A stretch of DNA of 64,000 bases, taken from the NCBI GenBank assembly GCA_041650805.1, contig JBAZKM010000006.1, positions 17,837 to 81,836 of the forward strand, in the 5' to 3' direction. The notes under the pieces are model-generated. The model was not told the origin of the DNA and searched no databases. It saw nothing but the letters and a program-made list of their open reading frames with translations. The DNA comes from Candidatus Omnitrophota bacterium (lineage in GTDB: Bacteria; Omnitrophota; Gorgyraeia; 2-01-FULL-45-10). Shown one piece after another: positions 30,770-48,939 of the stretch. The translations under genes and the position numbers were made by a program. Every line of letters begins with the position of its first letter. Within the stretch, counting starts at the first letter, position 1.

Positions 30770-31362
30770 AGCGCGAACTTATCATAGCGACCAGGAATAA
30801 GAAGAAACTGGTCGAATTGAAGAAGTACCTGAAGGGTGTTAAGGCGGAGGTCCGTTCGCTCCTCGATCTGAAAGGCGCGCCGCGGATAGTGGAGAACGGC
30901 GATACGTTCAGGGAGAATGCCGTCAAGAAGGCGGCGGCCATTTCGAAATTTACAGGCGGCCTTGTCCTGGCGGACGACTCCGGCCTCTGTGTAGATATTC
31001 TCGGGGGCAGACCGGGCGTAAGGTCAGCAAGGTTCGCGGGGCCGGGCAAGCGGGACCCGGACAATAATCTTAAGCTCTTGAAACTGCTGGCTAAGACGCC
31101 CCTCCGGATGCGTAAAGCGCGTTTCATCTGCGCCATAGCCATAGCGGACAGGGGCAGGCCGGTCAGGGTCATAGAGAAGGATTGCAGGGGCCTCATCGCC
31201 TTTTCGACGCGCGGCGCTTACGGGTTCGGATACGATCCGCTCTTCCTCATACCGAAGCACGGTAAGACGTTCGGTGAGCTGGGGCCGAGGGTGAAGGACA
31301 GGATGAGCCATCGCTCGAAGGCGCTTAAGGAAGCCCGGAAGTTCCTGAGGCGATATATTTAG
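30766..31362 (+). CDS. rdgB: Non-canonical purine NTP pyrophosphatase (RdgB/HAM1 family)
   Basis: Motifs [20 protein letters not shown] near the C-terminus. Confidence 0.8.
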
Positions 31363-31376
31363 TTCTGTGATATAAT

Positions 31377-31453
31377 CGGGGCGTAGCGCAGTTGGCTAGC
31401 GCGCTTGGTTTGGGACCAAGAGGTCCTCGGTTCGAATCCGAGCGCCCCGACCA
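31377..31453 (+). tRNA. tRNA-Pro (anticodon TGG), CCA encoded
   Basis: CGGGGCG acceptor pairs with CGCCCCG. Anticodon stem-loop CUUGG-UUUGGGA-CCAAG. T-loop GGTTCGAATCC. Confidence 0.85.
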
Positions 31454-31761
31454 TAAGCCTGCCATTTGTTTACGTGTAGGCAGGCTATCCCCGCGAGTAT
31501 ATCGGAAATTTCGGAGAAATTTCCGATATGATTACGAGCGGGGATGATCTCACCGGCTGATGACGGTGATGAAAGTCACCTTCATCTTCTGGTCAGACGG
31601 ATTTCGAAGAAATCCGGCAGCCGCTTAGAAGATGGGGAAGCAGAGCCGGTAGGAAGTAGTCTTGTTCTTCCGAAAGCACTCTGCGAATTTCGTATATCGC
31701 AGGGCGATATCCGAAATTCAATGTTTCGCTTTCGGAAGGAAATTTGCAGAGCAAATTTCAC
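31454..31761 (+). other. 308-nt highly structured intergenic region between tRNA-Pro and tRNA-Arg (unassigned ncRNA or recombination/regulatory element)
   Basis: Several long hairpins. One has a perfect 13-bp palindrome (ATATCGGAAATTT-cggag-AAATTTCCGATAT) nested inside an ATCCCCGC/GCGGGGAT stem. Others include AGCCTGCC/GGCAGGCT and CGGATTTC/GAAATCCG. Confidence 0.4.
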
Positions 31762-31838
31762 GTCCCTGTAGCTCAGCTGGATAGAGCATCTGCCTTCTAA
31801 GCAGAGGGTCGCCTGTTCGAATCAGGCCAGGGACGCCA
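31762..31838 (+). tRNA. tRNA-Arg (anticodon TCT), CCA encoded
   Basis: GTCCCTG/CAGGGAC acceptor. Anticodon loop CUUCUAA. T-loop GTTCGAATC. Confidence 0.85.
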
Positions 31839-31986
31839 TCCGCCTTCGCAATCAACGCGGAAAGCGGCAAGGTGCTTCGGCGGATTTTATCCGCCATAGC
31901 CATCATGCTATAATATGCTGAAGGCGACGGCGGATGTGCCCGCCGAAGCATTCTGTTGCGCTCCGTTGAATGCGAAGGCGGGCCAC
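31839..31986 (+). repeat. Copy A of a ~148-nt MITE-like structured repeat with imperfect terminal inverted repeats, abutting the tRNA-Arg CCA end
   Basis: About 95% identical to 58920-59067. Termini TCCGCCTTCGCAATCAACG ... CGTTGAATGCGAAGGCGG are inverted. Internal long stem GCTTCGGCGG...CCGCCGAAGC. Contains TATAAT. Confidence 0.8.
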
Positions 31987-31996
31987 AAATAGGTGT

Positions 31997-32242
31997 ATGC
32001 ACTACGTTTACATCCTAAAAAGCCTTAAAGTAAGAGATAAAATATACGTTGGTATGACCAATAACCTGAACCGTCGTCTCAAAGAGCACGATGAAGCAGC
32101 AAGTGATAATTACACATATCGCCATCGTCCCTGGAAACTCGAAACATATATTTCATTTCAAAGTAATTTGGCTGCTAAGGAATTCGAAGCTTATTTAAAA
32201 ACAGGCTCAGGTAGAGCATTTATTAGACGACATCTTGTTTAA
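31997..32242 (+). CDS. Small GIY-YIG nuclease-domain protein (UPF0213/YhbQ-like)
   Basis: Motifs YVYILKS...YVGMTNNLNRRLKEH (GIY...YIG...R...H/E). Starts 10 nt after repeat copy A. Confidence 0.7.
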   Translation: MHYVYILKSLKVRDKIYVGMTNNLNRRLKEHDEAASDNYTYRHRPWKLETYISFQSNLAAKEFEAYLKTGSGRAFIRRHLV

Positions 32243-32410
32243 GTGTTTGAGGTACCTGTTAGTCTTCTGTTTTTATTCTTTCGCAAAAATCTTGCTAATA
32301 CTAGGCAATGACTATATAATAACGCTATCGAAATTGAAAAGACGACTATTAGAGAGTTTCGCTCATAATTCGAACCGATATACTTGTCTATAACAAAAAG
32401 CGAGGTGGGT

Positions 32411-33418
32411 ATGAGATTACGAAAATTGAAGTATGCTTTGGTTGCTTTAGCGGTGCTCTTCATATGCGGAGACGTCTGCGCGTTCACGTTCACGAAAGTC
32501 GACAAGGAGGAGCGCAAAAAGCAGGAGATAGACGATCTCCAGAAGAGGTTCGAATGGTGGCCGACCGACGCCCAGCCGCAACCGGTGAAGGACGAGAAGC
32601 GCGGCGGATACTGGTGGATGCCGCGCACCCCGGGCACGACGAGACCGTGGGGTAACCGCGGTTATATTTACGTATATAAGATCATATACGATTACAAAGA
32701 GGAAGAGCTACCGCCGGCTAAGGCCTCGGAGCCGCGCCCGTCGCTCCTCATCAAGAAGATCATAAAGAACGTCAAGGTCTACTTCGATTTCGATAAGGCG
32801 GAACTTCGCGACGATGCCGTATCGGTGCTGGAAGGGGCCGTCGCCTCTTTGCGCCGGAACCCGGAGACGAGCATCCTGATCACCGGTAACTGCGATATCC
32901 GCGGATCCGAACAGTATAACGAGAAACTCGGCCGGCGCCGCGGCGACAGCGTAAAGAAGTTCATGCTCGACAGCGGTGTCCCGGAGAAGAGGGTGATGAT
33001 CGTAAGCCGCGGTAAGCTCGATGCCATAGCGCCGGTGACGGACCTCGCCGGCATGGCAAAAGACAGGAATGCCCAGTTCATGATAGCAGAGGTGGAAGAG
33101 GTCATGATCCCTGCGCCGAGCACGCAGGGTGAGGCCGAAGGGGCCGTCCCGTCCCAGGAGGCGGAACAGATCCCCGAAGGTGCGACGCAGATCGAGGAAG
33201 GGAAGTATCTCATAGAAAAGGAAGAGATAGTCGAGTCGGAGGTCAAGGTCTCCACTAAGACGTACGTCACGAAGAAGGGCGATACGCTCTGGAAGATCGC
33301 AGAGAGGGAGCTCGGCGAGGGCAGAAGGTGGAATACAATATACGAGCTCAATAAGGATAAGATCAAGAACCCGAATAAGCTGAGCGCAGGGAAGAGGCTC
33401 GTTATTCCGGTCGAATAG
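32411..33418 (+). CDS. OmpA-family peptidoglycan-binding protein with C-terminal LysM domain, secreted
   Basis: Signal peptide. OmpA_C-like motif (YFDFDKAELRDDAVSVLE...NCDIRGSEQYNEKLGRRRGDSV). LysM (YVTKKGDTLWKIAE...GKRLVIP). GAGGTGGG RBS. Confidence 0.75.
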   Translation: MRLRKLKYALVALAVLFICGDVCAFTFTKVDKEERKKQEIDDLQKRFEWWPTDAQPQPVKDEKRGGYWWMPRTPGTTRPWGNRGYIYVYKIIYDYKEEELPPAKASEPRPSLLIKKIIKNVKVYFDFDKAELRDDAVSVLEGAVASLRRNPETSILITGNCDIRGSEQYNEKLGRRRGDSVKKFMLDSGVPEKRVMIVSRGKLDAIAPVTDLAGMAKDRNAQFMIAEVEEVMIPAPSTQGEAEGAVPSQEAEQIPEGATQIEEGKYLIEKEEIVESEVKVSTKTYVTKKGDTLWKIAERELGEGRRWNTIYELNKDKIKNPNKLSAGKRLVIPVE

Positions 33419-33424
33419 TTTTGC

Positions 33425-33497
33425 GGTGGGCGTAGCTCAGTCCGCCTTCGCAATCAACGCGTAATAGATTAGGTGCTTCGGCGGATTTCGCACGAAT
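33425..33497 (+). repeat. 16-nt duplicate of the tRNA-His 5' end (33425-33440) followed by a ~57-nt 5' fragment of the MITE-like repeat (partial copy B)
   Basis: ggtgggcgtagctcag is identical to tRNA-His positions 1-16. It is followed by tccgccttcgcaatcaacgcg...ggtgcttcggcggattt, matching the first part of copies A and C. Confidence 0.7.
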
Positions 33498-33505
33498 AGT
33501 TTTAT

Positions 33506-33584
33506 GGTGGGCGTAGCTCAGCTTGGATAGAGCACCTGGCTGTGGCCCAGGGTGTCGCCGGTTCAAATCCGGTCGCCTACCCCA
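33506..33584 (+). tRNA. tRNA-His (anticodon GTG) with G-1 and discriminator C, CCA encoded
   Basis: G-1 followed by GTGGGCG paired with CGCCTAC (one G-U). Anticodon loop CUGUGGC. T-loop GGTTCAAATCC. Confidence 0.8.
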
Positions 33585-33887: not shown

Positions 33888-35489
33888 TTAGGCGAGCCCT
33901 GCGGTTAATGTCTGCCACATCTTTTTCTGCTTATTCCAGGATATTTCTCTGGTGATCTCATTCATTTTGTATTCGGGGATCAGTTGGATGATGTTATTAT
34001 CTGAAAAGAGAATCTCTTCCTGTATGCTAGGCGCGAGCATCAGCATATTTAGAAGAAGATACATTTTAGTGTGCGTTATATTGAGCCAATCAGCCACCTG
34101 TTTTAAATCTTTAGCCTTGCCGTCTTCAAGTAATCCTTGTATTTGATACGCTAATATTAAAAATTGGCGCAGCTTAGGCTCCTTTAGGATCGCCACAGCT
34201 TTAGGTGTCTCACGTACAAGGCTTGTTGCCAAATCTACATTGAATTCGTAAATTTTAGTAGAGCTTTGCAGTGTTATAAAGACCTTTTTACTCTCGGCTT
34301 CATAAAGTACAACTTTTACTAAGGCGAGAATCGTTTCACGTTGCCTCTCAAATGGCAGGTTCTCCCACGTTCCTGTAGCTATGTTTCTGTTGTCGGAGAT
34401 CTGGCGCAGACACAGCATGATCTGATTCTCGAATCTTAATGCGTTAACGGTCTTTGAAGGGCAATTCTCATAGCCTCGCTTTTGCGCGTTTAAACAAACG
34501 TAGTAAAAGTATTTCCATTTATGATTTTTGGTAGAGTATGCGTATATCATAGAGCTATCGCATGGCTTGCAGCGGACTATTTGGCTTAATAGGCCGATGT
34601 TTTTATGCGGTTTTACTTTTTTCTCGCGTCTATTCTCGTCCAAAATAGTTTGGACCTTATTAAAGACTTCTTCGCTGATTATCGCTTCATGCTGTCCCTG
34701 GTACACCTGCTTGCCTTTGTAGTTAATCTTGCCGATATAGAGCATATTACGCAGCATTAGCTGCATGCTCGTAGCCTTAAATGGAACACCGCCTGACATC
34801 TTACCCTTCCTTAGGTATTGTTTGGTTCGATAACCCCTTTTGTTGAGGATCATGGCTACGGAAAGGAGGGAGCGTTCCTTGGTATAAAGGTCAAACATTT
34901 CTCGGATAATTCGAGCCTCAGCCTCATTGATTACGATCTTATGATTTTCCTTATCGAGGTTATAGCCTAAGGCTGGCCTACCGCCCATCCACTGGCCTTT
35001 CTTGCGCGCAGCGCCCATTTTGTCGCGTGTGCGCTCGGATATGATCTCACGCTCGAACTGTGCGAAAGAGAGCAGAATATTGAGCGTAAGTCGTCCCATT
35101 GACGTATTTGTGTTAAAATGCTGCGTTACGGATACGAAGGCTACGTTATTTTGATCAAAAAATTCCAGCAGCTTACTAAAATCGAGCAATGAGCGCGATA
35201 GTCTGTCTACTTTGTAGACCACCACGCATCCTATTTTCCCAGACTTGATGTCTATTATCAGTTTTTGCAGCGAAGGACGTTCAGTAGTTGCGCCTGAAAA
35301 CCCTGCATCGTCATAGTGATCAGCTAACGTGATCAATCCTTCGGATTTTTGGCTTAGTATATAGCTTTCTGCTGCCTCGCGCTGCGCGTCAAGCGAGGTG
35401 AATTCCTGCTCCATGCCGTCATTCGTAGAAACACGCGTATAGATGGCGCAGGGGATAGGCTTCTTATCTTGTGTTAATTTGTCATCCAT
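33888..35489 (-). CDS. Large serine recombinase (resolvase/invertase N-terminal domain, recombinase domain, zinc-ribbon)
   Basis: Catalytic N-terminus (CAIYTRVSTNDG ... YKVDRLSRSL). 533 aa. C-terminal Cys cluster (CKPCDS...C). Confidence 0.85.
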   Translation of the reverse strand: MDDKLTQDKKPIPCAIYTRVSTNDGMEQEFTSLDAQREAAESYILSQKSEGLITLADHYDDAGFSGATTERPSLQKLIIDIKSGKIGCVVVYKVDRLSRSLLDFSKLLEFFDQNNVAFVSVTQHFNTNTSMGRLTLNILLSFAQFEREIISERTRDKMGAARKKGQWMGGRPALGYNLDKENHKIVINEAEARIIREMFDLYTKERSLLSVAMILNKRGYRTKQYLRKGKMSGGVPFKATSMQLMLRNMLYIGKINYKGKQVYQGQHEAIISEEVFNKVQTILDENRREKKVKPHKNIGLLSQIVRCKPCDSSMIYAYSTKNHKWKYFYYVCLNAQKRGYENCPSKTVNALRFENQIMLCLRQISDNRNIATGTWENLPFERQRETILALVKVVLYEAESKKVFITLQSSTKIYEFNVDLATSLVRETPKAVAILKEPKLRQFLILAYQIQGLLEDGKAKDLKQVADWLNITHTKMYLLLNMLMLAPSIQEEILFSDNNIIQLIPEYKMNEITREISWNKQKKMWQTLTAGLA

Positions 35490-35498: not shown

Positions 35499-35969
35499 TT
35501 ATAGTTTAAAGAAATCAAACGCATTCCAATTTGTACCTGTTATAACCAAGGTAACGGCAGATATGGACTTATAAATCTTACCCTCATACTCAAAGCCTCG
35601 TTCAAGCACTTTTACCTCGAGTTTTTTGCCCTTATACATCCTTATGATTTTGCTTCCCGGGATAGGTAGCCTTTTATCTCTAAATGGCCTGTATGAATAG
35701 TTCTGATTAGCGGCTTCTGGGTCAGGCCGGAGAACCTTATTATTAATGGGATCATACTTAGCAATAAGTTCCTTAATGCGTTTTTGCGCCTTTTCTGATA
35801 TGCTGCCATATTCGAGCTCCTGAAGCCTGTAAGCTATCCGCCTGATCAGATATCTTCTGTTATGCGAGAACTCACCCGGCTCCTTAAAGAGGCCCTTATA
35901 GGCCTCTTGCAGCTCGTAGGCATTCAGCTTAGTTATGGCTGCAATTTTGGCTTCTATTGGCTTTTCCAT
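35499..35969 (-). CDS. Small recombinase-associated protein (DUF2924-like)
   Basis: 156 aa. Located immediately upstream of, and co-oriented with, the large serine recombinase, the arrangement typical for DUF2924. Confidence 0.45.
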   Translation of the reverse strand: MEKPIEAKIAAITKLNAYELQEAYKGLFKEPGEFSHNRRYLIRRIAYRLQELEYGSISEKAQKRIKELIAKYDPINNKVLRPDPEAANQNYSYRPFRDKRLPIPGSKIIRMYKGKKLEVKVLERGFEYEGKIYKSISAVTLVITGTNWNAFDFFKL

Positions 35970-36111
35970 AGGTATCTACCCTCAGTCATATATAGGCATA
36001 GGTTTCGAGGTATAGCAAGTCATATAGAGAGGTATTTTTGATTGTTAAAAGGGGTCAAAAGTAATATAATAAACTACGAGTTACTACATTTTGTTATAAG
36101 AGAGGGCGATT

Positions 36112-36288
36112 ATGGAAACTTTTACCGTAGAAGATTTAGCGAAATATCTTAAACTGCATACATTCACTGTCCGGCGCCTAGCCAGAGAAGGGAAGATACC
36201 ATCTTTCAAGGCTGGTGGGCAATGGCGGTTCCGCAAAGATGAGATAGAAAATTGGTCTCGAAATAACAGATCAGAAGGAAGTAAATGA
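36112..36288 (+). CDS. Excisionase-family helix-turn-helix DNA-binding protein (58 aa)
   Basis: METFTVEDLAKYLKLHTFTVRRLAREGKIPSFKAGGQWRFRKDEIENW matches the excisionase/MerR-like HTH pattern (…KVGGxWRFRKxDI). Stop overlaps the SNF2 start (ATGA). Not in the ORF track because it is under 60 aa. Confidence 0.7.
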   Translation: METFTVEDLAKYLKLHTFTVRRLAREGKIPSFKAGGQWRFRKDEIENWSRNNRSEGSK

Positions 36289-39227
36289 TCACCGATTATC
36301 ACGCTAAATATTTTGCATATGAATTAACAAAACGATGCGCTTCGGATAGCCTGGAAAAGCTTTCGTCCACGCTTTCTAACGCGCAAGTTGACCTTAATCC
36401 CCATCAAATCGAAGCTGCTCTTTTTGCTTTTCGCTCACCACTCTCAAAAGGCGCAATTCTGGCTGATGAGGTAGGTCTTGGTAAAACCATTGAAGCAGGA
36501 ATCGTTCTGTCTCAGAAATGGGCAGAAAGAAAACGTAAGATATTACTTATTGTTCCATCGAGTTTACGTAAACAGTGGAATGCAGAACTCCAAGAGAAGT
36601 TTTTTCTACCATCGATAATATTAGAAACGAAATCCTTTAATCGATATATTAAGGATGGTAATCTTAACCCCTTTGATCAGAAAGACGTAATAATTATTAG
36701 TTCTTATCATTTTGCACGGGCAAAGGCGTCATATTTAAAACAGACTAAATGGGATCTTGTAGTTATCGATGAAGCGCATCATTTGCGTAATGTCTATAAA
36801 AGTAGCAACAAGATTGCAAGAGAGATAAAAGATGCATTGAGTGAAATACCAAAGGTCTTATTAACAGCTACTCCTCTCCAGAATTCGTTGCTTGAATTGT
36901 ATGGTCTTACCAGCGTTCTTGATGAACATCTCTTTGGTGATTTGAAAAGTTTCAAAGCGAAATATGCTCGCGTTTCGCGTGAACAGGATATTTATGAGAG
37001 CGAATTAGGTTTAGTCGAACCCAAGCAGGAGATGTTTACAGAGCTTAGGAATCGTCTTAAACCGGTATGCACTCGTACATTACGTCGTCAGGTACTAGAG
37101 TATATAAAATATACAAAGCGTATTCCTCTGACACAGGACTATATTCCAACAGAGCAGGAAATCGAACTCTACAATGGTATGTCCGAATATCTGCAGCGCC
37201 CAAGACTCTTTGCATTACCTACAAGCCAGCGTCAATTAATTACACTTGTTTTGCGTAAACTCCTGGCCTCTTCGTCATTCGCTATTGCTAGCACTCTCGA
37301 CAGCTTAGTTTATAAGCTTAAGAGGCTTATAGAAGAAGCTGAGAAGCAGCAAGCTACACAGGAAGAAGGTATCCCTGGGCTTGAACAAAACTTTGAGGAA
37401 TATGACGAGCTATCGGATGAATGGAATGATAACGAAGAGGAGGATGAAGAGAAGGCCGATGAGAAAAAGAAATATACTAAAGAAGATATTGATTTAATGA
37501 AGCAGGAAAAGATCGATCTTGAGAAATTTCGTGAACTGGCTAAGAAGATATGGAAAAACTCAAAGGGGGAAGCCCTGCTTATTGCACTTAAAAAAGGTTT
37601 TGAGATGACGGCAGAGCTTGGGGCACAAAAGAAAGCCGTCATTTTTACAGAATCTACAGTTACCCAAAGTTATCTGTTAAAGTTGCTTTCGGAAAACGGA
37701 TATGAAGGTAAGATAGTTTTATTCAATGGCTCTAATAATGATGCTCGTTCAAAAGAAATCTATCAGGAGTGGATTAAGAAGAACAAAGATACAGATAAAA
37801 TTACGGGCTCTAAAACAGCGGATCTACGTGCGGCCCTAATAGAATACTTTAAAAATGATGCAGAAATAATGATTGCTACTGAAGCGGGTGCTGAGGGCGT
37901 TAATCTACAATTCAGCTCACTAGTTATTAATTATGATTTACCCTGGAACCCTCAAAGAATTGAGCAGCGCATTGGTCGCTGTCATCGATACGGCCAGAAG
38001 CACGATGTTGTGGTAATAAACTTTGTGAATCGAAAGAATGCAGCCGATCAACGTGTATATGAGCTATTGGATCAAAAGTTTAACTTATTCAAGGGTGTAT
38101 TCGGTGCAAGCGATGAGATCCTCGGTAGTATAGAATCTGGGGTAGACTTTGAGAAACGGATCGCAGCTATCTACCAGACTTGTCGAAGTGAAGAAGAAAT
38201 TAACTCTGCTTTTGATTCTCTTCAAGAAGAGATGGATGATAGTATAAAAAATAATCTTAGAGAAACACGCCAAAAACTTTTAGAAAACTTTGACGCAGAA
38301 GTTCATGAAAAACTCAAAGTCAATATTAGAGAAAGCCAGGCTTATCTGGACATTTACGAGCATTGGCTATGGGATACGACAAGACACTATCTTGGTGATG
38401 CTGCAGAGTTTTCAGAGCATGAATATTCTTTCTTACTTAAAAGGAACCCATTCCCTGGAGAAAGTAGCATAGATTCTGGCCCATACAAAATTGGGAAGAA
38501 CATAGAAGATGCACATATATATCGCCCAGGGCATCCTTTGGCACAAAGAATACTTGGCGAGGTCAAAAAAAAAGAATTAGAAGATGCCGAAGTAGTTTTT
38601 GATTACTCCAAGAATTCAACTATAATATCAGTTCTGAAGCCTCTTATAGGAAGATCTGGAATTTTAAAAGTGAGCAATTATACTTTAGAGGCGCTTGAAG
38701 CAGAAGATAGGGTATTGGTAATGGCTTTAGATGATAAGGATGATGTAATTCCTCAGGATGTTGCAAAGAAGCTATTCTCTCTCACTGCTGAATCTATCAT
38801 AGCTAAGAATAGCATTTCTGATGATGGAAATAAGAAATTAGATATACTTGAACAAGAATCTGTAGATCTTATCACTACGCGTTGTGCTGAGCGCAACAGT
38901 GAATTTTTTGACAGTGAAGTCGATAAGTTGGACAGGTGGGCAGATGATATGAAGACAGCCCTTGAATTGGAATTAAAAAAGTTGGATATCGATATCAAAG
39001 CTGCTAAGACATTGGCAAAGAAGAATGTGAATTTGGATGAAAAACTTAAAGCGCAACGCGCAGTCAAAGATATGGAAAAGAAGCGCAACGAGATGCGTAA
39101 AAAACTCTATGAAGCGCAAGATGAAGTCGATAATAGAAAAGAAGATTTGATTGCGCGTGTAGAGTCTCAGCTCAAACAAACAACGAGTTTAACCACGCTT
39201 TTTACAATTCGCTGGAAAGTAATATAA
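36285..39227 (+). CDS. SNF2-family helicase (DEAD/DEAH-box ATPase with helicase C domain)
   Basis: Helicase motifs I LADEVGLGKTIEAG, II DEAHHLRN, III TATPLQN, VI QRIGRCHRYGQ. 980 aa with a long coiled-coil C-terminus. Confidence 0.85.
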   Translation: MITDYHAKYFAYELTKRCASDSLEKLSSTLSNAQVDLNPHQIEAALFAFRSPLSKGAILADEVGLGKTIEAGIVLSQKWAERKRKILLIVPSSLRKQWNAELQEKFFLPSIILETKSFNRYIKDGNLNPFDQKDVIIISSYHFARAKASYLKQTKWDLVVIDEAHHLRNVYKSSNKIAREIKDALSEIPKVLLTATPLQNSLLELYGLTSVLDEHLFGDLKSFKAKYARVSREQDIYESELGLVEPKQEMFTELRNRLKPVCTRTLRRQVLEYIKYTKRIPLTQDYIPTEQEIELYNGMSEYLQRPRLFALPTSQRQLITLVLRKLLASSSFAIASTLDSLVYKLKRLIEEAEKQQATQEEGIPGLEQNFEEYDELSDEWNDNEEEDEEKADEKKKYTKEDIDLMKQEKIDLEKFRELAKKIWKNSKGEALLIALKKGFEMTAELGAQKKAVIFTESTVTQSYLLKLLSENGYEGKIVLFNGSNNDARSKEIYQEWIKKNKDTDKITGSKTADLRAALIEYFKNDAEIMIATEAGAEGVNLQFSSLVINYDLPWNPQRIEQRIGRCHRYGQKHDVVVINFVNRKNAADQRVYELLDQKFNLFKGVFGASDEILGSIESGVDFEKRIAAIYQTCRSEEEINSAFDSLQEEMDDSIKNNLRETRQKLLENFDAEVHEKLKVNIRESQAYLDIYEHWLWDTTRHYLGDAAEFSEHEYSFLLKRNPFPGESSIDSGPYKIGKNIEDAHIYRPGHPLAQRILGEVKKKELEDAEVVFDYSKNSTIISVLKPLIGRSGILKVSNYTLEALEAEDRVLVMALDDKDDVIPQDVAKKLFSLTAESIIAKNSISDDGNKKLDILEQESVDLITTRCAERNSEFFDSEVDKLDRWADDMKTALELELKKLDIDIKAAKTLAKKNVNLDEKLKAQRAVKDMEKKRNEMRKKLYEAQDEVDNRKEDLIARVESQLKQTTSLTTLFTIRWKVI

Positions 39228-39235
39228 GGAGTCCT

Positions 39236-40924
39236 ATGAACGGAAGAAAACAAAAATTAGAATTAACATGGATTGGAAAAGAAGAAGAGTTAAGGCTAGA
39301 GCCTAGAATATTAATTGAAGATCCAAAAAAATCTTATGGAGATCCGAAATCAGAAAACGTACTTATTCATGGCGATAATCTTCTAGCGCTTAAGGCACTA
39401 GAACAAGATTTTGCAGACAAAATTAAGTGTATTTATGTCGATCCACCCTTTAACACCGGAGCAGCTTTTGAGCATTATGATGATAGCATTGAACATTCAA
39501 TTTGGCTTCAGTTAATGCGACATCGCTTGGGGTTGTTACGTAATTTACTTAGAGACGATGGATGTATATTTATTCAGCTTGATGATAGCGAGGCATCTTA
39601 TTGTAAAGTCATGATGGATGAAATATTTGGAAGAAATAATTATCTCAATCAAATTTCCGTATCAACGAATAAGCCATTTGGATACAAAAGTACTGCCGCA
39701 TCATTATTTCAACAAGCGAACCAGTTACTTTTTTATGCAAAAAACAAGGATAGTTTTGTTCTAAACGAAAATAAACTATTTATTGAGCGCGAATACGATA
39801 CACAGTATAAATGGGTATTTGATAATATAACTAAACCTGAAAATCAATGGACTTGGAGAAGCATTAATGAAGTTGTTTCTGAAAAACTTGGTTTTTCTTC
39901 ATATGCAGAGGCCAAGAAAAAAATATCAAAGCAGGAAATTGAAACTGAAATTGCTATATTTGCTTTAAACAATGCTAACAAGGTGTTTAGGACTGCATCC
40001 GTAACGGGTGGGGCATTTCTAAAAAGAAAAGATACAATAAAACTATCAAAAGAAAATAAGGCAAAAATTATTAGACATCCAGGCGACGATATGAACTACA
40101 TATTTATTGGTGGAGAAAGAGTTATTTACTATTCAGAGAGATTAATTGAGATTGAAGGTAACCATGTGCCAGGAGAGCTTATTACAGATATGTGGACGGA
40201 TATATCTGTAGAAGGATTAGCAGCCGAAGGAGGGGTTGATTTTCCAAAAGGTAAAAAACCAGAAAAGTTGATTCAAAGATGTATTGAGCTAACGTCATCC
40301 ATAGGAGATTATGTGCTTGATAGTTTTTTGGGATCTGGCACAACATCTGCTGTCGCTCATAAAATAAATCGTCGTTGGATTGGCATAGAGTTAGGAAGCC
40401 AAGCCAATACTCATTGTTTGCCACGTCTGAAGTCGGTAGTTAATGGCTCGGATCAAAGCGGAATTTCAAAAGCAGTAATTTGGAAGGGCGGTGGCGGGTT
40501 TAAATTTTATGAACTTGCGCCAAGTTTACTTCGCAAAGACCAGCATGGAAACTGGGTTATCGATGAAAAATACAACGCCAATATGTTGGCTGCCGCAATG
40601 TGCAAGCATGAGGGGTTTAAATTCTTTCCCGATGAAACCGTATATTGGAAACAAGGTAAATCTACAGAGACTGATCATATTTTTGTTACAACTTCTTTCG
40701 TAACTGTTGAGCAACTGGATAAAATTCATGAAGAAATGAAACGTGGCGAAAGCCTGCTCATATGCGCAAAGTCATTTGCTCCGCCCTGTAAAGATAGACA
40801 TAATAACATTACAATCAAAAAGATTCCTCAGATGATTTTAGGAAGATGTGAATTCGGTAAAGATAACTACGATTTAAATATCATAAATATGTCTAAGGAT
40901 AGCTCTAAAGAATCCGAGGATTGA
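39236..40924 (+). CDS. mod: DNA methyltransferase (N6-adenine/N4-cytosine, beta-class), type III Mod-like
   Basis: Motif IV YVDPPFNTG precedes motif I DSFLGSGTTSAVA (circularly permuted beta order). A central variable region suggests a target-recognition domain. Confidence 0.8.
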   Translation: MNGRKQKLELTWIGKEEELRLEPRILIEDPKKSYGDPKSENVLIHGDNLLALKALEQDFADKIKCIYVDPPFNTGAAFEHYDDSIEHSIWLQLMRHRLGLLRNLLRDDGCIFIQLDDSEASYCKVMMDEIFGRNNYLNQISVSTNKPFGYKSTAASLFQQANQLLFYAKNKDSFVLNENKLFIEREYDTQYKWVFDNITKPENQWTWRSINEVVSEKLGFSSYAEAKKKISKQEIETEIAIFALNNANKVFRTASVTGGAFLKRKDTIKLSKENKAKIIRHPGDDMNYIFIGGERVIYYSERLIEIEGNHVPGELITDMWTDISVEGLAAEGGVDFPKGKKPEKLIQRCIELTSSIGDYVLDSFLGSGTTSAVAHKINRRWIGIELGSQANTHCLPRLKSVVNGSDQSGISKAVIWKGGGGFKFYELAPSLLRKDQHGNWVIDEKYNANMLAAAMCKHEGFKFFPDETVYWKQGKSTETDHIFVTTSFVTVEQLDKIHEEMKRGESLLICAKSFAPPCKDRHNNITIKKIPQMILGRCEFGKDNYDLNIINMSKDSSKESED

Positions 40925-40925
40925 T

Positions 40926-43601
40926 ATGGATCAAAAAGCACAAGCAATTAAGAATAGATTGAGTTTAAGAAAGCCACAAGCTGATAGCTTGGAGATATTG
41001 GCAAAGCTAGCGGATATGTTGGAACTCAAGAAATCTATTGATGTCAATGGTGAGCTAAGTAAAGTACGGGCGTTATACCCCACTTGTACTGATTTTGAAC
41101 GAGATTTTCCTTCCTTATGCTTCTCTTTGGCTACGGGTGTTGGTAAAACACGTCTTATGGGTGCATTTATTAGTTATTTATATGTGTCCAAGGGTATCCA
41201 GAATTTCTTTGTTTTGGCGCCCAACCTTACCATTTATAATAAACTAATTGATGATTTATCTAATCCCAGCAGTCCTAAATATGTTTTTAAGGGTATTGCT
41301 GAATTTACGGCTACGCCACCGCGCATAGTTACTGGGGATAATTACCAGGAGGTGCGTCAAGGGCAAGGGCTACTATTTAAGTCAGTAAATATTAATATAT
41401 TTAATATCTCTAAGATTAATTCTGAAGTACGCGGCGGGCGCGAGCCACGTATCAAGCGGTTATCAGAATATCTTGGGGAGTCTTATTTTAATTATCTGGC
41501 ATCTTTGCCTGATCTAGTTTTATTAATGGATGAATCTCACCACTATCGTGCCGATGCCGGATTACGTGCAATCAATGAATTGAAACCGATTATAGGTTTA
41601 GAATTAACTGCTACTCCGATTGATACGCACTCCAATAAATTCAAAAATGTTGTTTTTGACTATCCCTTAGCGTTAGCACTTCGTGATGGGTTCGTAAAAG
41701 AGCCTGCAGTAGCTACGCGTAAGAATTTTAACCCCGATCAATATCGCAGAGATCCAAAAGAGCTCGATCTAATAAAACTTGAAGATGGCGTACGTATTCA
41801 TGAAGATACAAAGGTTGCCCTTGATATTTATGCCCGCGACACGGGAAATAAGCTTGTGAGGCCTTTTGTATTAGTAGTTGCGCGAGATACGGATCATGCC
41901 AAAGAAATTAGAGCATTGATTGAATCCGATCGGTTTTTTGAAGGTCGATATCGTGGAAAGGTTATGGAGATTCACTCTAATCAACGTGGAGAAGAAAAGG
42001 AAGAAAATGTTCAGCGGCTCCTGGAGCTAGAAAAACCAGGCAATCCAATCGAGCTAGTAATTCACGTTAACATGCTTAAAGAAGGATGGGACGTTACCAA
42101 TCTGTATACTATAATTCCTTTACGTGCGGCAAATTCTCAGATTTTAACCGAACAAACAATAGGGCGTGGATTACGGCTTCCTTATGGTGCAAGAACCGGT
42201 GTTAGCAAGGTTGATAAACTCACTATTATTGCTCATGATCGTTTTCAAGCCATCGTAGATGCTGCCAATGACCCAAATTCCATCATTCGTAAGGAGAACA
42301 TCATTGAGATAGAACCAGAATCTTTACCTCCTTCCCAAGAAGTAGTTACGGCAAGTTCAACTATGGAAAGCGAACTTATTCAAAAGCGTCAAGAAATTTG
42401 CGACATAAAAAATGAAATCGAACGCCAAAAGGCGATTTTTACTCTTGACGCCCGGCAAACAATCGTGGAAACAGTAAATGCTCTTGGTGGGGAGGTTAAA
42501 AACTTAAACGATTTAAAGAGCGATGAAGGTCGTAAGATAGCTCTTGCTAGGATGGCTGAGCGTATTGAGAGTGCTCCCCAGCAAGATCTATTTAAAGGTG
42601 AAATGCTCGAAGCAATTAAAAAAGAGTATGAAGCGGTTATTGAAGAATTAATCGATAAGACTATTCCCATTCCTCGCGTTCTTATTCAGCAGAAAAATAC
42701 TGTTGAATGCGGATTCCATGATTTTGATTTGGATGTAGGTGGATTAAATTATCAACCAGTTTCAGAAGAGATAGTTAGAAGGACCTTACGTACTAATGAA
42801 AGTGAGACGTTAGCAAGTGATGGTGTTGGAGTAGTACGTGACACCGCAGAGAATATAATCGTTAACGAACTTATTAATTATTCGGATGTGGAGTATGATC
42901 GCGAAGCAGAGCTGCTCTATAAATTAACTAGGCAAGCAATCACCAGGCTCGGACAAGGGAAAAGGGAAGAGGATTTACGAAACATTGTGCTATATCATAA
43001 GCGCGAAATAGGTCAATATATCTATGTGCAGCTACAGAAAAATTTCTATCTAAAAAGCGCTGGATTTGAAGAGCCAGTCATTTATCCATTTACAAAGATT
43101 GAACCACATAACTTCTCAAAATATTCTGCAGATAGTGTGCATCATTTTACAGAGACCATTACACCAACGCATTCTATACCGACAAAGGTGTTTGGTGGCT
43201 TTAAGAAGGCTTGCCACAATTTATATAAGTTTGATTCCAAGGCAGAGAAGGACTTCTCAATGATTCTGGAGCAGGATAAAGACGTGATTAAATGGTTGCG
43301 CCCAGCTCAGGCGCAGTTTGCTATATACTGGAAACATAATTCTCATCGATATACACCAGATTTTGTGGTTGAAATGAACGAATCGATTTATCTAGTAGAG
43401 ATTAAGGCCGAGATAGACATTGATGAAGCTGATGTTAAGGAGAAAGCGCAGGCTGGCAACGAATATTGTAATATTGTCACCACATACTACAGAAGCAATA
43501 GAGGAAAGCAATGGAAGTATTCTCTAATTCCTCATACAGCAGTGACGCTTAGCATGAGCGCGCTCGGATTGCTTGAGGGAAATGTTATCAGGCTTCGATA
43601 A
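40926..43601 (+). CDS. res: Type III restriction endonuclease Res subunit (helicase plus PD-(D/E)xK nuclease)
   Basis: Walker A TGVGKTRLM, DEAH box LLMDESHHY, helicase C motifs. C-terminal PD-ExK (TPDFVV...YLVEIKAE). Separated from mod by 1 nt. Confidence 0.75.
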   Translation: MDQKAQAIKNRLSLRKPQADSLEILAKLADMLELKKSIDVNGELSKVRALYPTCTDFERDFPSLCFSLATGVGKTRLMGAFISYLYVSKGIQNFFVLAPNLTIYNKLIDDLSNPSSPKYVFKGIAEFTATPPRIVTGDNYQEVRQGQGLLFKSVNINIFNISKINSEVRGGREPRIKRLSEYLGESYFNYLASLPDLVLLMDESHHYRADAGLRAINELKPIIGLELTATPIDTHSNKFKNVVFDYPLALALRDGFVKEPAVATRKNFNPDQYRRDPKELDLIKLEDGVRIHEDTKVALDIYARDTGNKLVRPFVLVVARDTDHAKEIRALIESDRFFEGRYRGKVMEIHSNQRGEEKEENVQRLLELEKPGNPIELVIHVNMLKEGWDVTNLYTIIPLRAANSQILTEQTIGRGLRLPYGARTGVSKVDKLTIIAHDRFQAIVDAANDPNSIIRKENIIEIEPESLPPSQEVVTASSTMESELIQKRQEICDIKNEIERQKAIFTLDARQTIVETVNALGGEVKNLNDLKSDEGRKIALARMAERIESAPQQDLFKGEMLEAIKKEYEAVIEELIDKTIPIPRVLIQQKNTVECGFHDFDLDVGGLNYQPVSEEIVRRTLRTNESETLASDGVGVVRDTAENIIVNELINYSDVEYDREAELLYKLTRQAITRLGQGKREEDLRNIVLYHKREIGQYIYVQLQKNFYLKSAGFEEPVIYPFTKIEPHNFSKYSADSVHHFTETITPTHSIPTKVFGGFKKACHNLYKFDSKAEKDFSMILEQDKDVIKWLRPAQAQFAIYWKHNSHRYTPDFVVEMNESIYLVEIKAEIDIDEADVKEKAQAGNEYCNIVTTYYRSNRGKQWKYSLIPHTAVTLSMSALGLLEGNVIRLR

Positions 43602-43664: not shown

Positions 43665-44771
43665 ATGTCAAAAATTACTTCTACAATCTGGGAAATAGAG
43701 CCGCATACGGAAGCTAAGCATGCAATTTTAAGAAAATATTTAGATGCATGGTTGCCCATAATTAGCAGGTGGAATGGAAGGGTTGTTTACATTGATGGTT
43801 TCGCAGGGCCTGGCGAATATATAGGTGGTAAAGAAGGTTCCCCCATAATTGCAATTAAAGCCGTAATGGAGCATAGACTAAAGCTTCGGATGACCGCAGA
43901 ATTTATGTTTATTTTTATAGAAGCTGATACTGAAAGATGCGAGTATTTACAAACAAAACTTAGTGCGTTAAAATTGCCTTCTAATTTAAAATATGAATGT
44001 GTCTGTAAAAAATTTGAAGACGTAATAAAGAGTACGTTAAATAAGTTAGATGAGCAAAAAACGAGGCTTGCCCCCTCCTTTGTTTTTATTGATCCGTTTG
44101 GTTATTCAGGCATCCCATTTGTATTAATAAAACGTATTATGGAAAATCCTAATTGTGAAGTTTTAATTACTTTTATGTATGAAGAAATTAATAGATTTGC
44201 GCAAGATACCAGGTCTGACAATATTTTAGATGAGACTTTCGGGACTGATAAGTGGCGCGAGGTACGAAAAGAAACAGATCCGAATAAGCGCTGTTATTAT
44301 CTTCACGATCTTTACAAAGGTCAATTACAGCATGAAGCTGGAATAAAGTTTGTTCGTTCATTTAAGATGATTAATAGTATGAATAAACCAGATTACTTTC
44401 TTTTCTTTGGCACTAATGAAATTACAGGATTGAAGAAAATGAAGGAAGCAATGTGGAGAGTTGATGAAACGGGCTCATTTCAATTTTCAGATGCTACGTA
44501 TGACCCTAATCAAGCCTTTTTGTTTGAGTTAGAACCAAATTATGTTAAGCTGAAAAATATTATCGTAAAGAATTTTAAAGGTAAAACAGTTAGCGTGGAA
44601 GAGCTTGAGAATTTTATTCTCACAGAAACGCCTTTTACTCAGAATCATTATAAGCGAGCAATTTTAGCAAAAATGGAAAAAACTGATCCTCCAGAAATTA
44701 AGGTTCAAAGTAAAGGCGCTAAAAGAAAAAAGGGGACATTCCCAGGTCAAACTACTATACAGTTTATTTAG
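43665..44771 (+). CDS. TcmP-like protein (three-Cys-motif partner protein family), with SAM-MTase-like motifs
   Basis: N-terminal TIWEIEPHTEAKHAILRKYLDAWLPI...YIDGFAGPGEY and FVFIDPFGYSG resemble the TcmP family (motif I/IV-like). Assignment from memory of the family signature. Confidence 0.45.
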   Translation: MSKITSTIWEIEPHTEAKHAILRKYLDAWLPIISRWNGRVVYIDGFAGPGEYIGGKEGSPIIAIKAVMEHRLKLRMTAEFMFIFIEADTERCEYLQTKLSALKLPSNLKYECVCKKFEDVIKSTLNKLDEQKTRLAPSFVFIDPFGYSGIPFVLIKRIMENPNCEVLITFMYEEINRFAQDTRSDNILDETFGTDKWREVRKETDPNKRCYYLHDLYKGQLQHEAGIKFVRSFKMINSMNKPDYFLFFGTNEITGLKKMKEAMWRVDETGSFQFSDATYDPNQAFLFELEPNYVKLKNIIVKNFKGKTVSVEELENFILTETPFTQNHYKRAILAKMEKTDPPEIKVQSKGAKRKKGTFPGQTTIQFI

Positions 44772-44783
44772 GTGAATTAAACA

Positions 44784-45569
44784 ATGCAAACCATAGACAG
44801 AAAAACATTGCTGTACAAAAGTGGCGTAGAATATGCCGACTTTTGCTTAAACCATGTGGAAGGGTGTTCTCACGGCTGTAAATACCCCTGCTATGCGTAC
44901 ATGATGAAGAGACGCTGTGGCATTGTTAAAACATATGATGAATGGTGCAAGCCAAAACTAGTGGCTAATGCATTAGAACTCTTGGATAAAGAGATACCTA
45001 AATATAAAGATACTATAAAATATGTCCATATGTGCTTTTCTACAGACCCATTTATGTATCAACAGGAACGGGTATGTGATCTAAGTTTAAAAATAATAGA
45101 TAAGCTTAACTTAAATGAAATCAGATGCACCGTATTGACCAAAGGTATTTTCCCAAGAGAAATTGCCAAAATAAATGGTTTTAGTAGAAATAATGAGTAT
45201 GGCGTTACATTAGTTTCTTTGGATGAAAAATTCCGCCAGAGTTATGAACCGAATGCAGCTCCATTTAGGAATAGGATTCAATCGCTCAAATATCTTCATG
45301 ATAAAGGATATAAAACATGGGTAAGCATGGAGCCGTACCCAACGCCTAATTTTATTGAACAAGATTTGAGAGAGATTTTAGATGCCGTATCATTTGTCGA
45401 TAAAATTATATTCGGACGTATAAACTACAATGCCAAGGCGTCGGAGTTTAAACATACGAAGGAATTCTATAATAACCTAGCCTGTTCAGTGGTAAAATTT
45501 TGTAAGCATCATAAAATTAATTATCATATCAAGCAAGGAACTCATACTGAAAATGAGAACCCATTCTAA
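44784..45569 (+). CDS. Three-Cys-motif (CxxxCxxxC) radical-SAM/SPL-like protein, partner of the TcmP-like protein
   Basis: NHVEGCSHGCKYPCYAY gives a Cys triad with 3-residue spacing instead of the canonical CxxxCxxC. 13 nt downstream of the TcmP-like gene. Confidence 0.45.
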   Translation: MQTIDRKTLLYKSGVEYADFCLNHVEGCSHGCKYPCYAYMMKRRCGIVKTYDEWCKPKLVANALELLDKEIPKYKDTIKYVHMCFSTDPFMYQQERVCDLSLKIIDKLNLNEIRCTVLTKGIFPREIAKINGFSRNNEYGVTLVSLDEKFRQSYEPNAAPFRNRIQSLKYLHDKGYKTWVSMEPYPTPNFIEQDLREILDAVSFVDKIIFGRINYNAKASEFKHTKEFYNNLACSVVKFCKHHKINYHIKQGTHTENENPF

Positions 45570-47136
45570 TCATATAAATATCTATAGACTCAAGCATGAG
45601 ATATCTAAAATCCCAGGGATATCGCTCGCGAGTATTGAACAGTCATATGAGATAGAAAAAGAAGCAACCGTGAATGGTATAAAATATAGGTTATATATTC
45701 AGCGAAGTTTTCCGCATACACCAAAGTGGTGCAGATTTCTCGATCAATTAATTGACAAATCTAAGCCTAAAATTAGATCAAGCACTTCTAGTTTTATATT
45801 ATTCGCAGAATATAATAGCAGGGCTTACGCTCTAACGGGCGGTTTTGGCCATACAAAAATAAAAGATCTTATTGATGAAGAGTTTGGGCTACATATGGCG
45901 CTTAGGTTAATAGACCCAAAATTGATAACTGGCATTTTCCAGAAATCGATGAAAGGCGATACGCGTCAAATTTATAGAGCTGTTATAGGCTACAAGCCGG
46001 AGCTAGATCTCGAGAATTTCAATAGAATTTTGAGGGCAGTTGAAGGTAAAACATCCGATAGATTTTTTGGCATGCGAGTTTCTGGGAGGGCATCCCTCTC
46101 TTTCAATTGTATGGTACCACTTTCTGAATTAAGCGTTTTATTTGATAAGTTAGAAGAGGTGTATAAAAAAGACAGCCCAATTTATTTCCCAAAATCTTAC
46201 GAACTGATTACAGACGATAAGCTTCTAAGTAAACTGGACAATATGTTAATTAAAGAGACCAATGATTTTATGGCAGCCAGAGAAGATAGGGACAGGCTTT
46301 ATATTGAATTAAAAGATATTAATTTGCAATTTAGAAGCACAAGATTTGAGCTTAAGGTGAAAAGGACTAAAAATGAATTCAAATATTTCAGTTTAGAAGA
46401 TATTCGCGATGCCCTAGCCAAAAATCAAACGACGCATTTTAACAAATGCGATGATATGTTGCACATTAAAATTAGCGGATTTGATGAGTCAAATAATGTT
46501 GTATTTGAAGATGAGCCGTTGTTGAAAATGTTAGTGTTTGAAGTCGATCATAACAATAGATCCTACTTTTTTATTGATAAAAAATGGTATCACATTTACC
46601 CAGATTTCAAGAACCATGTAGATTCAGACATTGCTCGTATTAGTGTGGATCGTCGTCTTATGCCTGCATGGGACGACAGTAAGTTAGGCGTGGGCAAGGG
46701 GGAAAGAGAATATAACATATATACAAGCGGATTGAAGGGATGGAACAACTTAGATAGGGATTGCGTGCGAATGACGGATGAAACCCCTATAGAGGTTTGC
46801 GATTTATACAATAAGATAAATCGTCAATTAATTCATGTTAAAAAAGTATGGGGATCAAAGACAAGTTATTTATTTGCTCAAGGTGCCGTGTCAGCGGAGG
46901 TGCTCTATCAGTCGCAGGAATTCAGGGATGCGTGCATAACAAAATGGCCCTCATTATTTGATCATACGTTACCGCAAGGGCATAGAGTAGTCTATGCGAT
47001 TGCTGATAATAAAACCCAAGACGCAAGTTTTCCCAGAAATTTAACTTTTTTTTCAAAAGTTAATTTAATGCAAACAGTATCACGATTAGAGATACTAGGG
47101 TATGATGTTATTTTAGCATCGATACGGGTTGACTAA
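45553..47136 (+). CDS. Hypothetical 527-aa protein in the defence cluster
   Basis: Long ORF with AT-rich codon usage like its neighbours. No motif recognised. Overlaps the previous gene's stop. Confidence 0.5.
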   Translation: MRTHSNHINIYRLKHEISKIPGISLASIEQSYEIEKEATVNGIKYRLYIQRSFPHTPKWCRFLDQLIDKSKPKIRSSTSSFILFAEYNSRAYALTGGFGHTKIKDLIDEEFGLHMALRLIDPKLITGIFQKSMKGDTRQIYRAVIGYKPELDLENFNRILRAVEGKTSDRFFGMRVSGRASLSFNCMVPLSELSVLFDKLEEVYKKDSPIYFPKSYELITDDKLLSKLDNMLIKETNDFMAAREDRDRLYIELKDINLQFRSTRFELKVKRTKNEFKYFSLEDIRDALAKNQTTHFNKCDDMLHIKISGFDESNNVVFEDEPLLKMLVFEVDHNNRSYFFIDKKWYHIYPDFKNHVDSDIARISVDRRLMPAWDDSKLGVGKGEREYNIYTSGLKGWNNLDRDCVRMTDETPIEVCDLYNKINRQLIHVKKVWGSKTSYLFAQGAVSAEVLYQSQEFRDACITKWPSLFDHTLPQGHRVVYAIADNKTQDASFPRNLTFFSKVNLMQTVSRLEILGYDVILASIRVD

Positions 47137-48609: not shown

Positions 48610-48939
48610 ATGTCACATTATTTCTTATGTGGATTGGAGTACAAGTGGGACTTGATTAGAGAAACATCCTCTAGCCAAAAGTTTATTGTTGATGTTGGCG
48701 ATTATTGGGGACTTAAAGCCACGTTCGATATCCATTACACAAAGCCTGAAATAGCGTATGTAACCGTATGTCTTATCGGGCCAAAGGAGTATTTTACTGA
48801 TGGGCTAAGCCATTGGTTGTTTGCTGATTTAGAAAAAATAATCGAAAAGCACGGTGACTATGGCGTCATAGATTATGCTCTCGTTTTCAGTGATCATTTG
48901 TGTAATGGAAATTACAGTATGGAGTCATTTTCAGCATAA
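48610..48939 (+). CDS. Hypothetical protein (109 aa)
   Basis: GGAGG RBS 7 nt upstream of ATG 48610. The long ORF-track start at 48487 is probably an upstream extension. Confidence 0.4.
   Translation: MSHYFLCGLEYKWDLIRETSSSQKFIVDVGDYWGLKATFDIHYTKPEIAYVTVCLIGPKEYFTDGLSHWLFADLEKIIEKHGDYGVIDYALVFSDHLCNGNYSMESFSA

Follow-up and report, generated by a model that had tools for sequence, protein, structure and literature searches.

A type III-like restriction-modification locus with an upstream SNF2-family ATPase gene in an Omnitrophota genome

Type III restriction has been viewed for decades as the work of a two-protein machine. SNF2-family ATPases are known from the vicinity of DNA methylases in other defence systems, and this pairing recurs in DISARM class 1 (10.1101/2021.12.28.474362), in BREX-related systems (PMC12839542), and in ARMADA II (PMC12458937). 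Here, we describe an operon in which an SNF2 gene stands directly upstream of a type III Mod-Res pair. It is located in a 64,000-nucleotide (nt) stretch of contig JBAZKM010000006.1 of a Candidatus Omnitrophota bacterium (GCA_041650805.1), the whole of which is called the window below. A protein of the window is 100% identical to one encoded by a Candidatus Omnitrophota metagenome-assembled genome. From its sequence, the HTH-SNF2-Mod-Res locus is taken, with modest confidence, to be a three-component type III-like restriction-modification (R-M) system in which SNF2 is accessory to restriction. In a full-text search of the literature, no description of an SNF2 protein together with type III Mod/Res was found (mention in older papers is possible), and the term "SNF2" has zero occurrences in the full text of the 2025 EcoSal review of R-M biology. 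The SNF2-Mod-Res unit looks like an undescribed variant of type III R-M.

The operon and its products

The genes for a small helix-turn-helix (HTH) protein, the SNF2 ATPase, Mod, and Res follow one another in this order on one strand, with frames that overlap or nearly abut. The coordinates of an earlier annotation made from the letters alone (the original prediction) all hold. The elements of the operon, with protein lengths in amino acids (aa), are the following:

36042..36070, + strand, promoter-like site TTGTTA-17-TATAAT, the best sigma-70-like consensus match upstream of the operon
36112..36288, + strand, HTH_17 (excisionase/MerR-like) protein of 58 aa, MAD1-like (Pfam HTH_17, 57.7 bits)
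36285..39227, + strand, SNF2-family ATPase of 980 aa, DrmD/RapA-like (Pfam SNF2-rel_dom and Helicase_C)
39236..40924, + strand, type III Mod of 562 aa, a beta-class N6_N4 methyltransferase (PF01555, 139 bits)
40926..43601, + strand, Res of 891 aa, a superfamily 2 (SF2) helicase with a C-terminal PD-ExK nuclease (ResIII, Tn7_TnsA-like_N)

The stop codon of the HTH gene overlaps the start of SNF2 in the tetranucleotide ATGA (TGA at 36286-36288, ATG at 36285-36287), and the 980-aa SNF2 frame is separated by 8 nt from the beta-class Mod, which in turn is followed after 1 nt by the helicase/PD-ExK Res, exactly as had been claimed. An AAGGAG motif in the 8-nt junction between SNF2 and Mod overlaps the SNF2 stop codon. 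We infer translational coupling of HTH and SNF2 from the gene geometry only. The promoter-like site lies 42 nt before the HTH start and agrees with the consensus at 10 of 12 positions; it is weak and a consensus match only, and sigma-70-like matches in the operon region are fewer than in shuffled sequence. A consensus scan of the operon region, which is a weak method, found no terminator-like site after Res. On the minus strand, an open reading frame (ORF) of 72 aa is also present at 36084-36302, the HTH gene being the plus-strand reading there.

Mod and Res have the features that characterize type III enzymes, that is, a beta-class motif order in Mod and, encoded directly after mod, an SF2 ATPase joined to a PD-(D/E)xK nuclease. 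In Mod, motif IV (DPPF at about aa 69-72, from the translation) is followed by the target recognition domain (TRD, about aa 120-360) and then by motif I (FLGSGTT at about aa 363). The protein scores 575 bits with the PADLOC model MTase_III PDLC03636, and its matches in the PDB include the Mod proteins of H. pylori (6k0w, E 2e-25) and of EcoP15I (4zcf_A, E 9e-24). Res scores 639 bits with REase_III PDLC03648; its N-terminal domain is ResIII, and aa 803-849 form a TnsA-like PD-ExK domain. All of 115 homologues share its residues GVGKT, D202/E203/H205, GRGLR, P811/D812, and E825/K827. Among loci with SNF2 and Res proteins that are 92-94% identical, the Mod TRD has been replaced: aa 120-360 are only 15-40% identical, with termini that are 80-90% identical. 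Such TRD replacement is the hallmark of functional type III systems that change their specificity, and a TRD swapped between near-identical systems is what would be expected of a working R-M system.

The motor of the SNF2 protein comprises aa 28-697, including an acidic insert at about aa 358-395, and its motifs GLGKT, DEAH, and motif VI are invariant across 46 homologues; the Walker A lysine is K67. The solved structure closest to the motor is RapA (PDB match, E 8e-39); DDM1 and LSH are also among the PDB matches. The region from aa 690 to 980 is predicted to form a beta-domain and a coiled-coil hairpin of about 110 aa (model with a predicted local distance difference test score, pLDDT, of 84.5), and the family of this C-terminal domain counts 1752 clusters at 50% identity, in which its position is always the protein C-terminus. 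Neither the domain scan nor the C-terminal model revealed a nuclease or other effector domain in SNF2.

Among named families, the SNF2 protein scores 697 bits with the PADLOC DrmD model PDLC02619, 704.9 bits with NCBIfam DrmD_b (NF038318; cut-off 950), with only the motor aligned, and 238.9 bits with NCBIfam DrmD (NF038317; cut-off 610), in a match that extends into the C-terminal region. The SNF2 proteins of the clade that were tested all behave in this manner, reaching about 700 bits with DrmD_b over the motor only, under the cut-off of 950, and 240-305 bits with DrmD, with the C-terminal region reached in three of four matches. Because these scores fall under both NCBI cut-offs, the clade is classified, on its sequences, as a distinct DrmD-like subfamily.

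Recurrence of the unit across genomes

The pairing of SNF2 with Mod and Res was followed in both directions. In the forward test, 80 genome loci were retrieved with the SNF2 protein (46-94% identity), of which 53 have a complete SNF2 gene and at least 7 kb of downstream sequence. All 53 carry Res on the same strand, and 49 of them also carry Mod under a strict criterion (a match over more than 300 aa). In three of the other four, divergence of the TRD breaks the Mod match into shorter pieces. In the reverse test, 80 metagenome loci were retrieved with the Res protein (46-92% identity), and SNF2 is found upstream in 46 of the 50 that extend at least 3.5 kb upstream of Mod. Gene order and strand are fixed in the 109 loci that have all three genes. 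The conservation of the triplet on which the original prediction had staked its proposal is thus borne out by both tests, and the chance juxtaposition that it had set against this, with SNF2 absent beside orthologous Mod-Res pairs, is contradicted by 46 of 50 informative loci. Nor is the locus unique, its architecture being widespread. SNF2-linked loci fall outside the two-gene definition of type III systems, which admits Mod and Res only.

The four exceptions in the reverse test are of different kinds. Locus L096 is uninformative, with a Gabija-like OLD/UvrD pair and Abi_2 reaching up to the contig edge. In L121 (1464-8092), a different SNF2 protein of 936 aa follows a DUF1156-type methylase of 1090 aa in an Hma-like arrangement, with a truncated Mod after it, in place of the usual SNF2, and the locus looks as if two SNF2-methylase systems had recombined. 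Two others, L089 and L151, are genuinely without SNF2; their Res genes align over the full length and are uninterrupted, and in L151 a tRNA synthetase gene abuts Mod. Apart from these four, L153 has only 46 aa of SNF2 (residues 2-47) left, directly before Mod, and this remnant is a deletion scar. In neither test was an SNF2 gene of the clade encountered that lacked a type III Res, and Mod-Res was occasionally seen without SNF2.

The forward loci belong to Omnitrophota, Planctomycetota, many lineages of the Candidate Phyla Radiation (CPR), Proteobacteria, Nitrospirota, Chlorobium, Thermosulfurimonas, and others. The type III Mod/Res partners of the SNF2 clade come from at least three families. 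Some are EcoP15I-like, and the Res of Zoogloea (L062) aligns over its full length with EcoP15I Res (E 6e-61). By their PADLOC MTase_III/REase_III models, the families are as follows:

PDLC03636/PDLC03648, the locus in the window
PDLC03634/PDLC03647, L062 (Zoogloea) and L047
PDLC03646/PDLC03654, L076 (Thermosulfurimonas, both models) and L078 (Mod only)

The operon is also found in well-studied bacteria. In E. coli, it occurs in 30 of 5426 complete genomes; the one genome examined, CFSAN004176 (NZ_CP014583.1, 2972014-2982559), has the order "mads1"-SNF2-Abi-AIPR-methylase-DEAD/DEAH helicase on an island next to tRNA-Sec, under generic names given by the annotation pipeline PGAP. A Salmonella IncFIB plasmid carries HTH-SNF2-IS256-Abi-hypothetical-methylase-helicase, and a Cupriavidus plasmid (NZ_CP016951.1) has a compact form of the operon. 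For Klebsiella plasmids, matches were counted only, without inspection.

Between SNF2 and Mod, many loci harbour additional genes. The gap is at most 150 nt in 40 of the 109 loci and longer than 600 nt in 64 (59%), the long gaps having a median of 2.1 kb and a maximum of 6 kb. A second, rarer cargo slot lies between Mod and Res, where the gap is at most 250 nt in 86 loci and longer than 600 nt in 20. The inserts encode Bro-N/PDC-S13, RhuM/PDC-S05, AIPR/AbiU, PDC-S06, SMC-like ATPases, and HEPN AbiV, as well as DUF2130 with an OLD nuclease, Schlafen/AlbA_2, a Gabija-like pair with Abi_2, and, in Salmonella, IS256 (embedded genes are found in L008, L010, L016, L019, L039, L050, L051, L055, L096, L161, and L163). 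Judged by these family assignments, the embedded genes are known or candidate defence genes. The junction of SNF2 and Mod is a hotspot for them and a practical place to search for new ones. That cargo separates SNF2 from Mod in 64 of 109 loci implies that the flanks are kept together by selection. The locus in the window is the compact, cargo-free form.

The three genes differ in how they evolve. Where Res proteins are 60-93% identical, the two Mod termini are 72-84% and 66-86% identical, and where Res is 35-38% identical they fall to 58-64% and 48-53%. This co-variation indicates that Mod-Res evolves as a complex. SNF2 is 72-80% identical in both groups and, as far as these comparisons go, represents a more conserved, exchangeable module, with the recombination breakpoint at the cargo slot.

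The small HTH gene is a less constant companion. HTH_17 homologues abut SNF2 in 11 of 117 informative loci, and other loci have at the same position an XRE-type protein, another HTH protein of 66 aa, or a protein of about 300 aa that appears WYL-like by eye (labels by reading). The HTH protein of the window scores 52 bits with TIGR01764 "excise", above the cut-off of 28.8, as well as 59.6 bits with NCBIfam MAD1, under the cut-off of 80, and 31.8 bits with the PADLOC mads model; its E. coli orthologue passes the NCBI MAD1 cut-off with 81.3 bits and bears the PGAP name mads1. In E. coli and Cupriavidus, HTH-SNF2 has no adjacent recombinase, and the Salmonella plasmid has just a small recombinase-family gene about 0.9 kb upstream. 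Since the gene is kept, together with SNF2, where no recombinase is adjacent, it is read as an operon regulator, and a MAD1-like small HTH regulator is preferred to the "excisionase" of the original prediction. The protein is probably an optional MAD1-like regulator of the operon and not a core component; on the island described below, it may have a double role as regulator and excisionase.

Possible roles of the SNF2 ATPase

As a three-component system, the operon would function as follows. Mod, probably as Mod2, would recognize a short asymmetric site and methylate one strand, marking self, as EcoP15I does, and Res would cut unmethylated foreign DNA by means of an ATP-triggered switch and its PD-ExK domain, again as in EcoP15I. 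SNF2 would translocate on double-stranded DNA as an accessory to restriction and not to methylation. Its likeliest roles would be to clear DNA-bound proteins or to recycle Mod-Res, enabling communication from site to site on phage DNA, and it may plug in via DNA or a conserved contact rather than via a co-evolving interface. The HTH protein would act as an optional transcriptional regulator of the operon, and the whole would be a compact, cargo-free system carried by a phage-like island with a serine recombinase.

The scheme as a whole draws on the co-occurrence seen in both tests, the three Mod/Res families, the intact ATPase, methylase, and nuclease motifs, the swapped TRDs, the cargo embedded between SNF2 and Mod, and the presence of the operon in cultured hosts. 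Five observations underlie the place given to SNF2. SNF2 is always accompanied by a type III Res, which argues that it does not act on its own. Loci that have lost it keep an uninterrupted Res, apparently without self-restriction, so that SNF2 seems not to be needed for protective methylation. It has no effector domain. It does not co-evolve with Mod-Res and therefore probably acts through DNA or through a conserved contact. Finally, RapA, its closest solved relative, frees protein-DNA complexes that have stalled. A number of points weigh against an accessory role in restriction. The classical type III systems EcoP15I and EcoP1I function with Mod and Res alone, and Res keeps an intact ATPase here, which leaves no obvious need for a second motor. 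Roadblock clearing or recycling by SNF2 is proposed by analogy to RapA only. The lack of co-variation between SNF2 and Mod-Res would also suit a neighbour that acts independently. Peptide seeds from this very locus served to find the related loci, which biases the sampling towards its relatives. Structure offers little help, as a fold search with the model of the SNF2 C-terminal domain was uninformative and a full-length AlphaFold2 (AF2) model built with 46 close homologues was poor (pLDDT 60, predicted TM-score, pTM, 0.35) and was not used.

Several other explanations of the SNF2 gene have to be considered. SNF2 could serve modification by helping Mod to reach or scan host DNA, keeping hemimethylated sites in the manner of the eukaryotic remodellers DDM1/LSH; the SNF2 partners of methylases in DISARM class 1, BREX type 3, and ARMADA are suspected of playing such a part. 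The cargo-free loci, which place SNF2 beside Mod and not beside Res, would agree with this, as would the recurrent SNF2-methylase pairing in DISARM class 1, BREX-related systems, and ARMADA II and the presence of DDM1 and LSH among the PDB matches of SNF2. If SNF2 were required for protective methylation, however, its loss should be lethal unless Res were lost too, whereas L089 and L151 have no SNF2 and keep an uninterrupted Res, L153 retains a deletion remnant, and SNF2 shows no co-variation with the conserved Mod termini; a role in modification is thus considered unlikely. The same doubt applies to SNF2 as an independent single-gene defence or housekeeping helicase that merely shares an insertion site or defence island with Mod-Res. 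Single-gene SNF2 defence does exist in the form of HmaA (PMC11232893), SNF2 is decoupled in evolution from Mod-Res, and many loci have other genes separating it from Mod. Such a neighbour would nevertheless hardly be expected to keep a fixed order and strand in 109 loci, with a gap of at most 150 nt in 40 of them, or to pair with Res in 53/53 forward and 46/50 reverse loci from distant phyla and with three Mod/Res families; nor does SNF2 have a nuclease or effector domain of its own.

The cargo slot leads to another proposal, in which SNF2 and Mod-Res form a guard scaffold that restrains Abi/AIPR/OLD cargo until it is released upon anti-restriction attack by a phage, the locus in the window being an empty scaffold. 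EcoprrI guards PrrC likewise, and 59% of the loci have the slot between SNF2 and Mod filled with known or candidate defence genes. This is nonetheless rather improbable: 40 of the 109 loci, the window included, are cargo-free and yet retain SNF2, which must therefore do something that does not depend on cargo. Moreover, the cargo is drawn from widely differing families, and its embedding may just reflect a recombination hotspot. Hardly credible, in comparison with the data, is that SNF2 and HTH are recombination or excision functions of a mobile element with a serine recombinase, as the original prediction had considered for SNF2. The HTH protein does match the excisionase-family domain TIGR01764, and a divergent recombinase with a DUF2924-like gene lies 140 nt upstream, a module that recurs in six other loci. 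Against this, more than 90% of the SNF2-Mod-Res loci have no such recombinase (a large serine recombinase with DUF2924 is present in only about 7 of 160), and HTH-SNF2 occurs without one next to it in E. coli and Cupriavidus and with the small, more distant one in Salmonella.

A bolder form of the accessory reading is that SNF2-Mod-Res forms a widespread class of its own among ATP-dependent restriction systems, in which SNF2 is required for type III enzymes to restrict phage DNA and the operon also serves as a modular docking site, with the embedded Abi, AIPR, or OLD cargo guarded in a PrrC-like way. This is possible, albeit doubtful. If true, classical type III R-M and DISARM-type systems would be linked both evolutionarily and mechanistically. 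With a conserved third motor, a large share of the loci now called "type III" may work unlike EcoP15I, and SNF2-Mod-Res may contain a relative of DISARM's unexplained DrmD that is simpler and easier to work with. With E. coli and Salmonella plasmids among its carriers, the system opens the part that bacterial SNF2 proteins play in immunity to direct tests.

Genomic setting and comparison with described systems

The operon is part of a low-GC island at about 33.6-59 kb, marked by a drop in GC content from about 0.55 to 0.35-0.45. The left edge of the island lies at tRNA-His (33507-33584). Besides the operon, it contains the following genes:

33888-35489, - strand, large serine recombinase (label from reading the translation)
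35499-35969, - strand, DUF2924-like protein (label from reading the translation)
48875-50224, + strand, ParB_N-N6_N4 methyltransferase fusion
50221-50907, + strand, HTH protein
50897-52522, + strand, terminase large subunit (Terminase_6C)
56111-57609, + strand, GIY-YIG protein and PDDEXK_4 protein (nuclease-like)

The recombinase and the DUF2924-like gene are divergent from the operon and make up the mobile-element module on which it is carried here, being context and not part of the system; the same module stands beside HTH-SNF2 in L001, L005, L040, L058, L059, and L071. The phage-like genes suggest that the island is a degraded prophage or satellite-like element, mobilized by the large serine recombinase at 33888-35489. 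As for long direct repeats flanking the island, only two short elements were found. A 37-nt copy of the tRNA-His leader and 5' end is located at 33404-33440, 81 nt upstream and 86% identical, and the 24-nt element TCCGCCTTCGCAATCAACGCGTAA has one copy near each island end, at 33441 and at 58920-58943, with 92% identity. They could be remnants of attachment sites or members of a small repeat family.

Downstream of the operon, a TcmP three-Cys-motif partner protein is encoded directly after Res on the same strand (+; TIGR04474, 227 bits; PADLOC PDC-M30A, 245 bits), followed by a radical SAM protein (44784-45569, +) and a DUF6119/TIGR04141 protein (45553-47136, +), the genes of which overlap by 17 nt. 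With these genes (43665-47136), the island may hold another candidate defence module. Further along, an ORF of 152 aa (52872-53330, +) starts with what resembles a signal peptide, contains NPVGxYGSxVSP motifs in repeats, and matches nothing in Pfam, and the ORFs at 53311-56114 look secreted and have no or weak Pfam matches. The higher-GC host part upstream of the island carries a tmRNA (24076-24487) and genes for tRNA-Leu, tRNA-Pro, tRNA-Arg, and tRNA-His within 23403-33584.

Several described systems share one component with the operon. The small HTH protein is MAD1-like, MAD1 being part of MADS (mad1-8), of which MAD6, MAD7, and MAD8 are mandatory and MAD1 is a widespread accessory regulator whose deletion has a limited effect (10.1101/2023.03.30.534895). 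The assignment to MADS was rejected, as the HTH protein is the only mads match and the mandatory MAD6-8 are not among the PADLOC matches listed for the neighbouring genes (for SNF2 and Mod, the best 25 families); the terms "SNF2" and "helicase" are absent from the text of the MADS preprint. BREX type 3 (BrxHII/PglX), BR systems, ARMADA II (ArmA/ArmB), and Hma have methylases that are PglX/YeeA-like or of the DUF1156 type, unlike type III Mod, and their effectors are PglZ, fused REase or HKD domains, and YprA helicases, where the operon has a type III Res. BREX is defined by a PglX-type methylase and PglZ, and BR systems by an SNF2 protein that has an N-terminal Tudor domain and a nuclease, either fused or associated. 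Both were set aside, with no PglZ or PglX among the matches listed, 211 bits for BrxH, and an SNF2 protein that has no N-terminal domain. So was Hma, which consists of HmaA (with NOV_C), HmaB (DUF1156), and HmaC (DUF499); its HmaA model reaches 171 bits with SNF2, far under the DrmD model, and the operon contains no NOV_C, DUF1156, or DUF499.

RapA (HepA), an SNF2 protein associated with bacterial RNA polymerase, releases stalled protein-DNA complexes. It is the best match to the motor among solved structures and provides a precedent for a bacterial SNF2 protein with this activity. Unlike RapA, the SNF2 protein of the window has no N-terminal Tudor-like region, its motor beginning at about aa 28, and it has a different C-terminal region; its gene context is also one of defence and not of transcription.

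DISARM class 1 resembles the operon in that a DrmD-related SNF2 gene lies directly upstream of an N6-adenine-type methylase targeting asymmetric sites. The methylases are, however, of different families, pfam13659 for DrmMI of DISARM class 1 (10.1101/2021.12.28.474362) and PF01555, the sole Pfam match, for the type III Mod of the window, and the effector here is a type III Res. The likeness to DISARM seen in the original prediction therefore stands in part, with the DrmD models being the closest named relatives of SNF2, whereas the suggested DISARM/BREX hybrid does not, given the missed DrmD cut-offs and the PF01555 methylase. Its statement that DUF1998 and PLD partners are absent was confirmed, as neither DrmA, DrmB (DUF1998), and DrmC (PLD) nor PglZ were found in the nine plus-strand ORFs scanned between 36.1 and 48.3 kb.

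Type III enzymes hemimethylate an asymmetric site, and their ATP-dependent cleavage needs two unmethylated sites in inverse orientation. The operon is in large part a type III R-M system, akin to EcoP15I and EcoP1I (Mod2Res), with which the SNF2-linked loci share a beta-class Mod with a central TRD, the mod-res gene order, TRD shuffling, and a Res composed of an SF2 ATPase and a C-terminal PD-ExK domain. In sequence, the Res of the window is only marginally similar to that of EcoP15I, with a weak match (E 1e-4) over aa 366-421. Unlike the classical type III systems, the SNF2-linked loci have a third conserved gene upstream and often carry embedded cargo.

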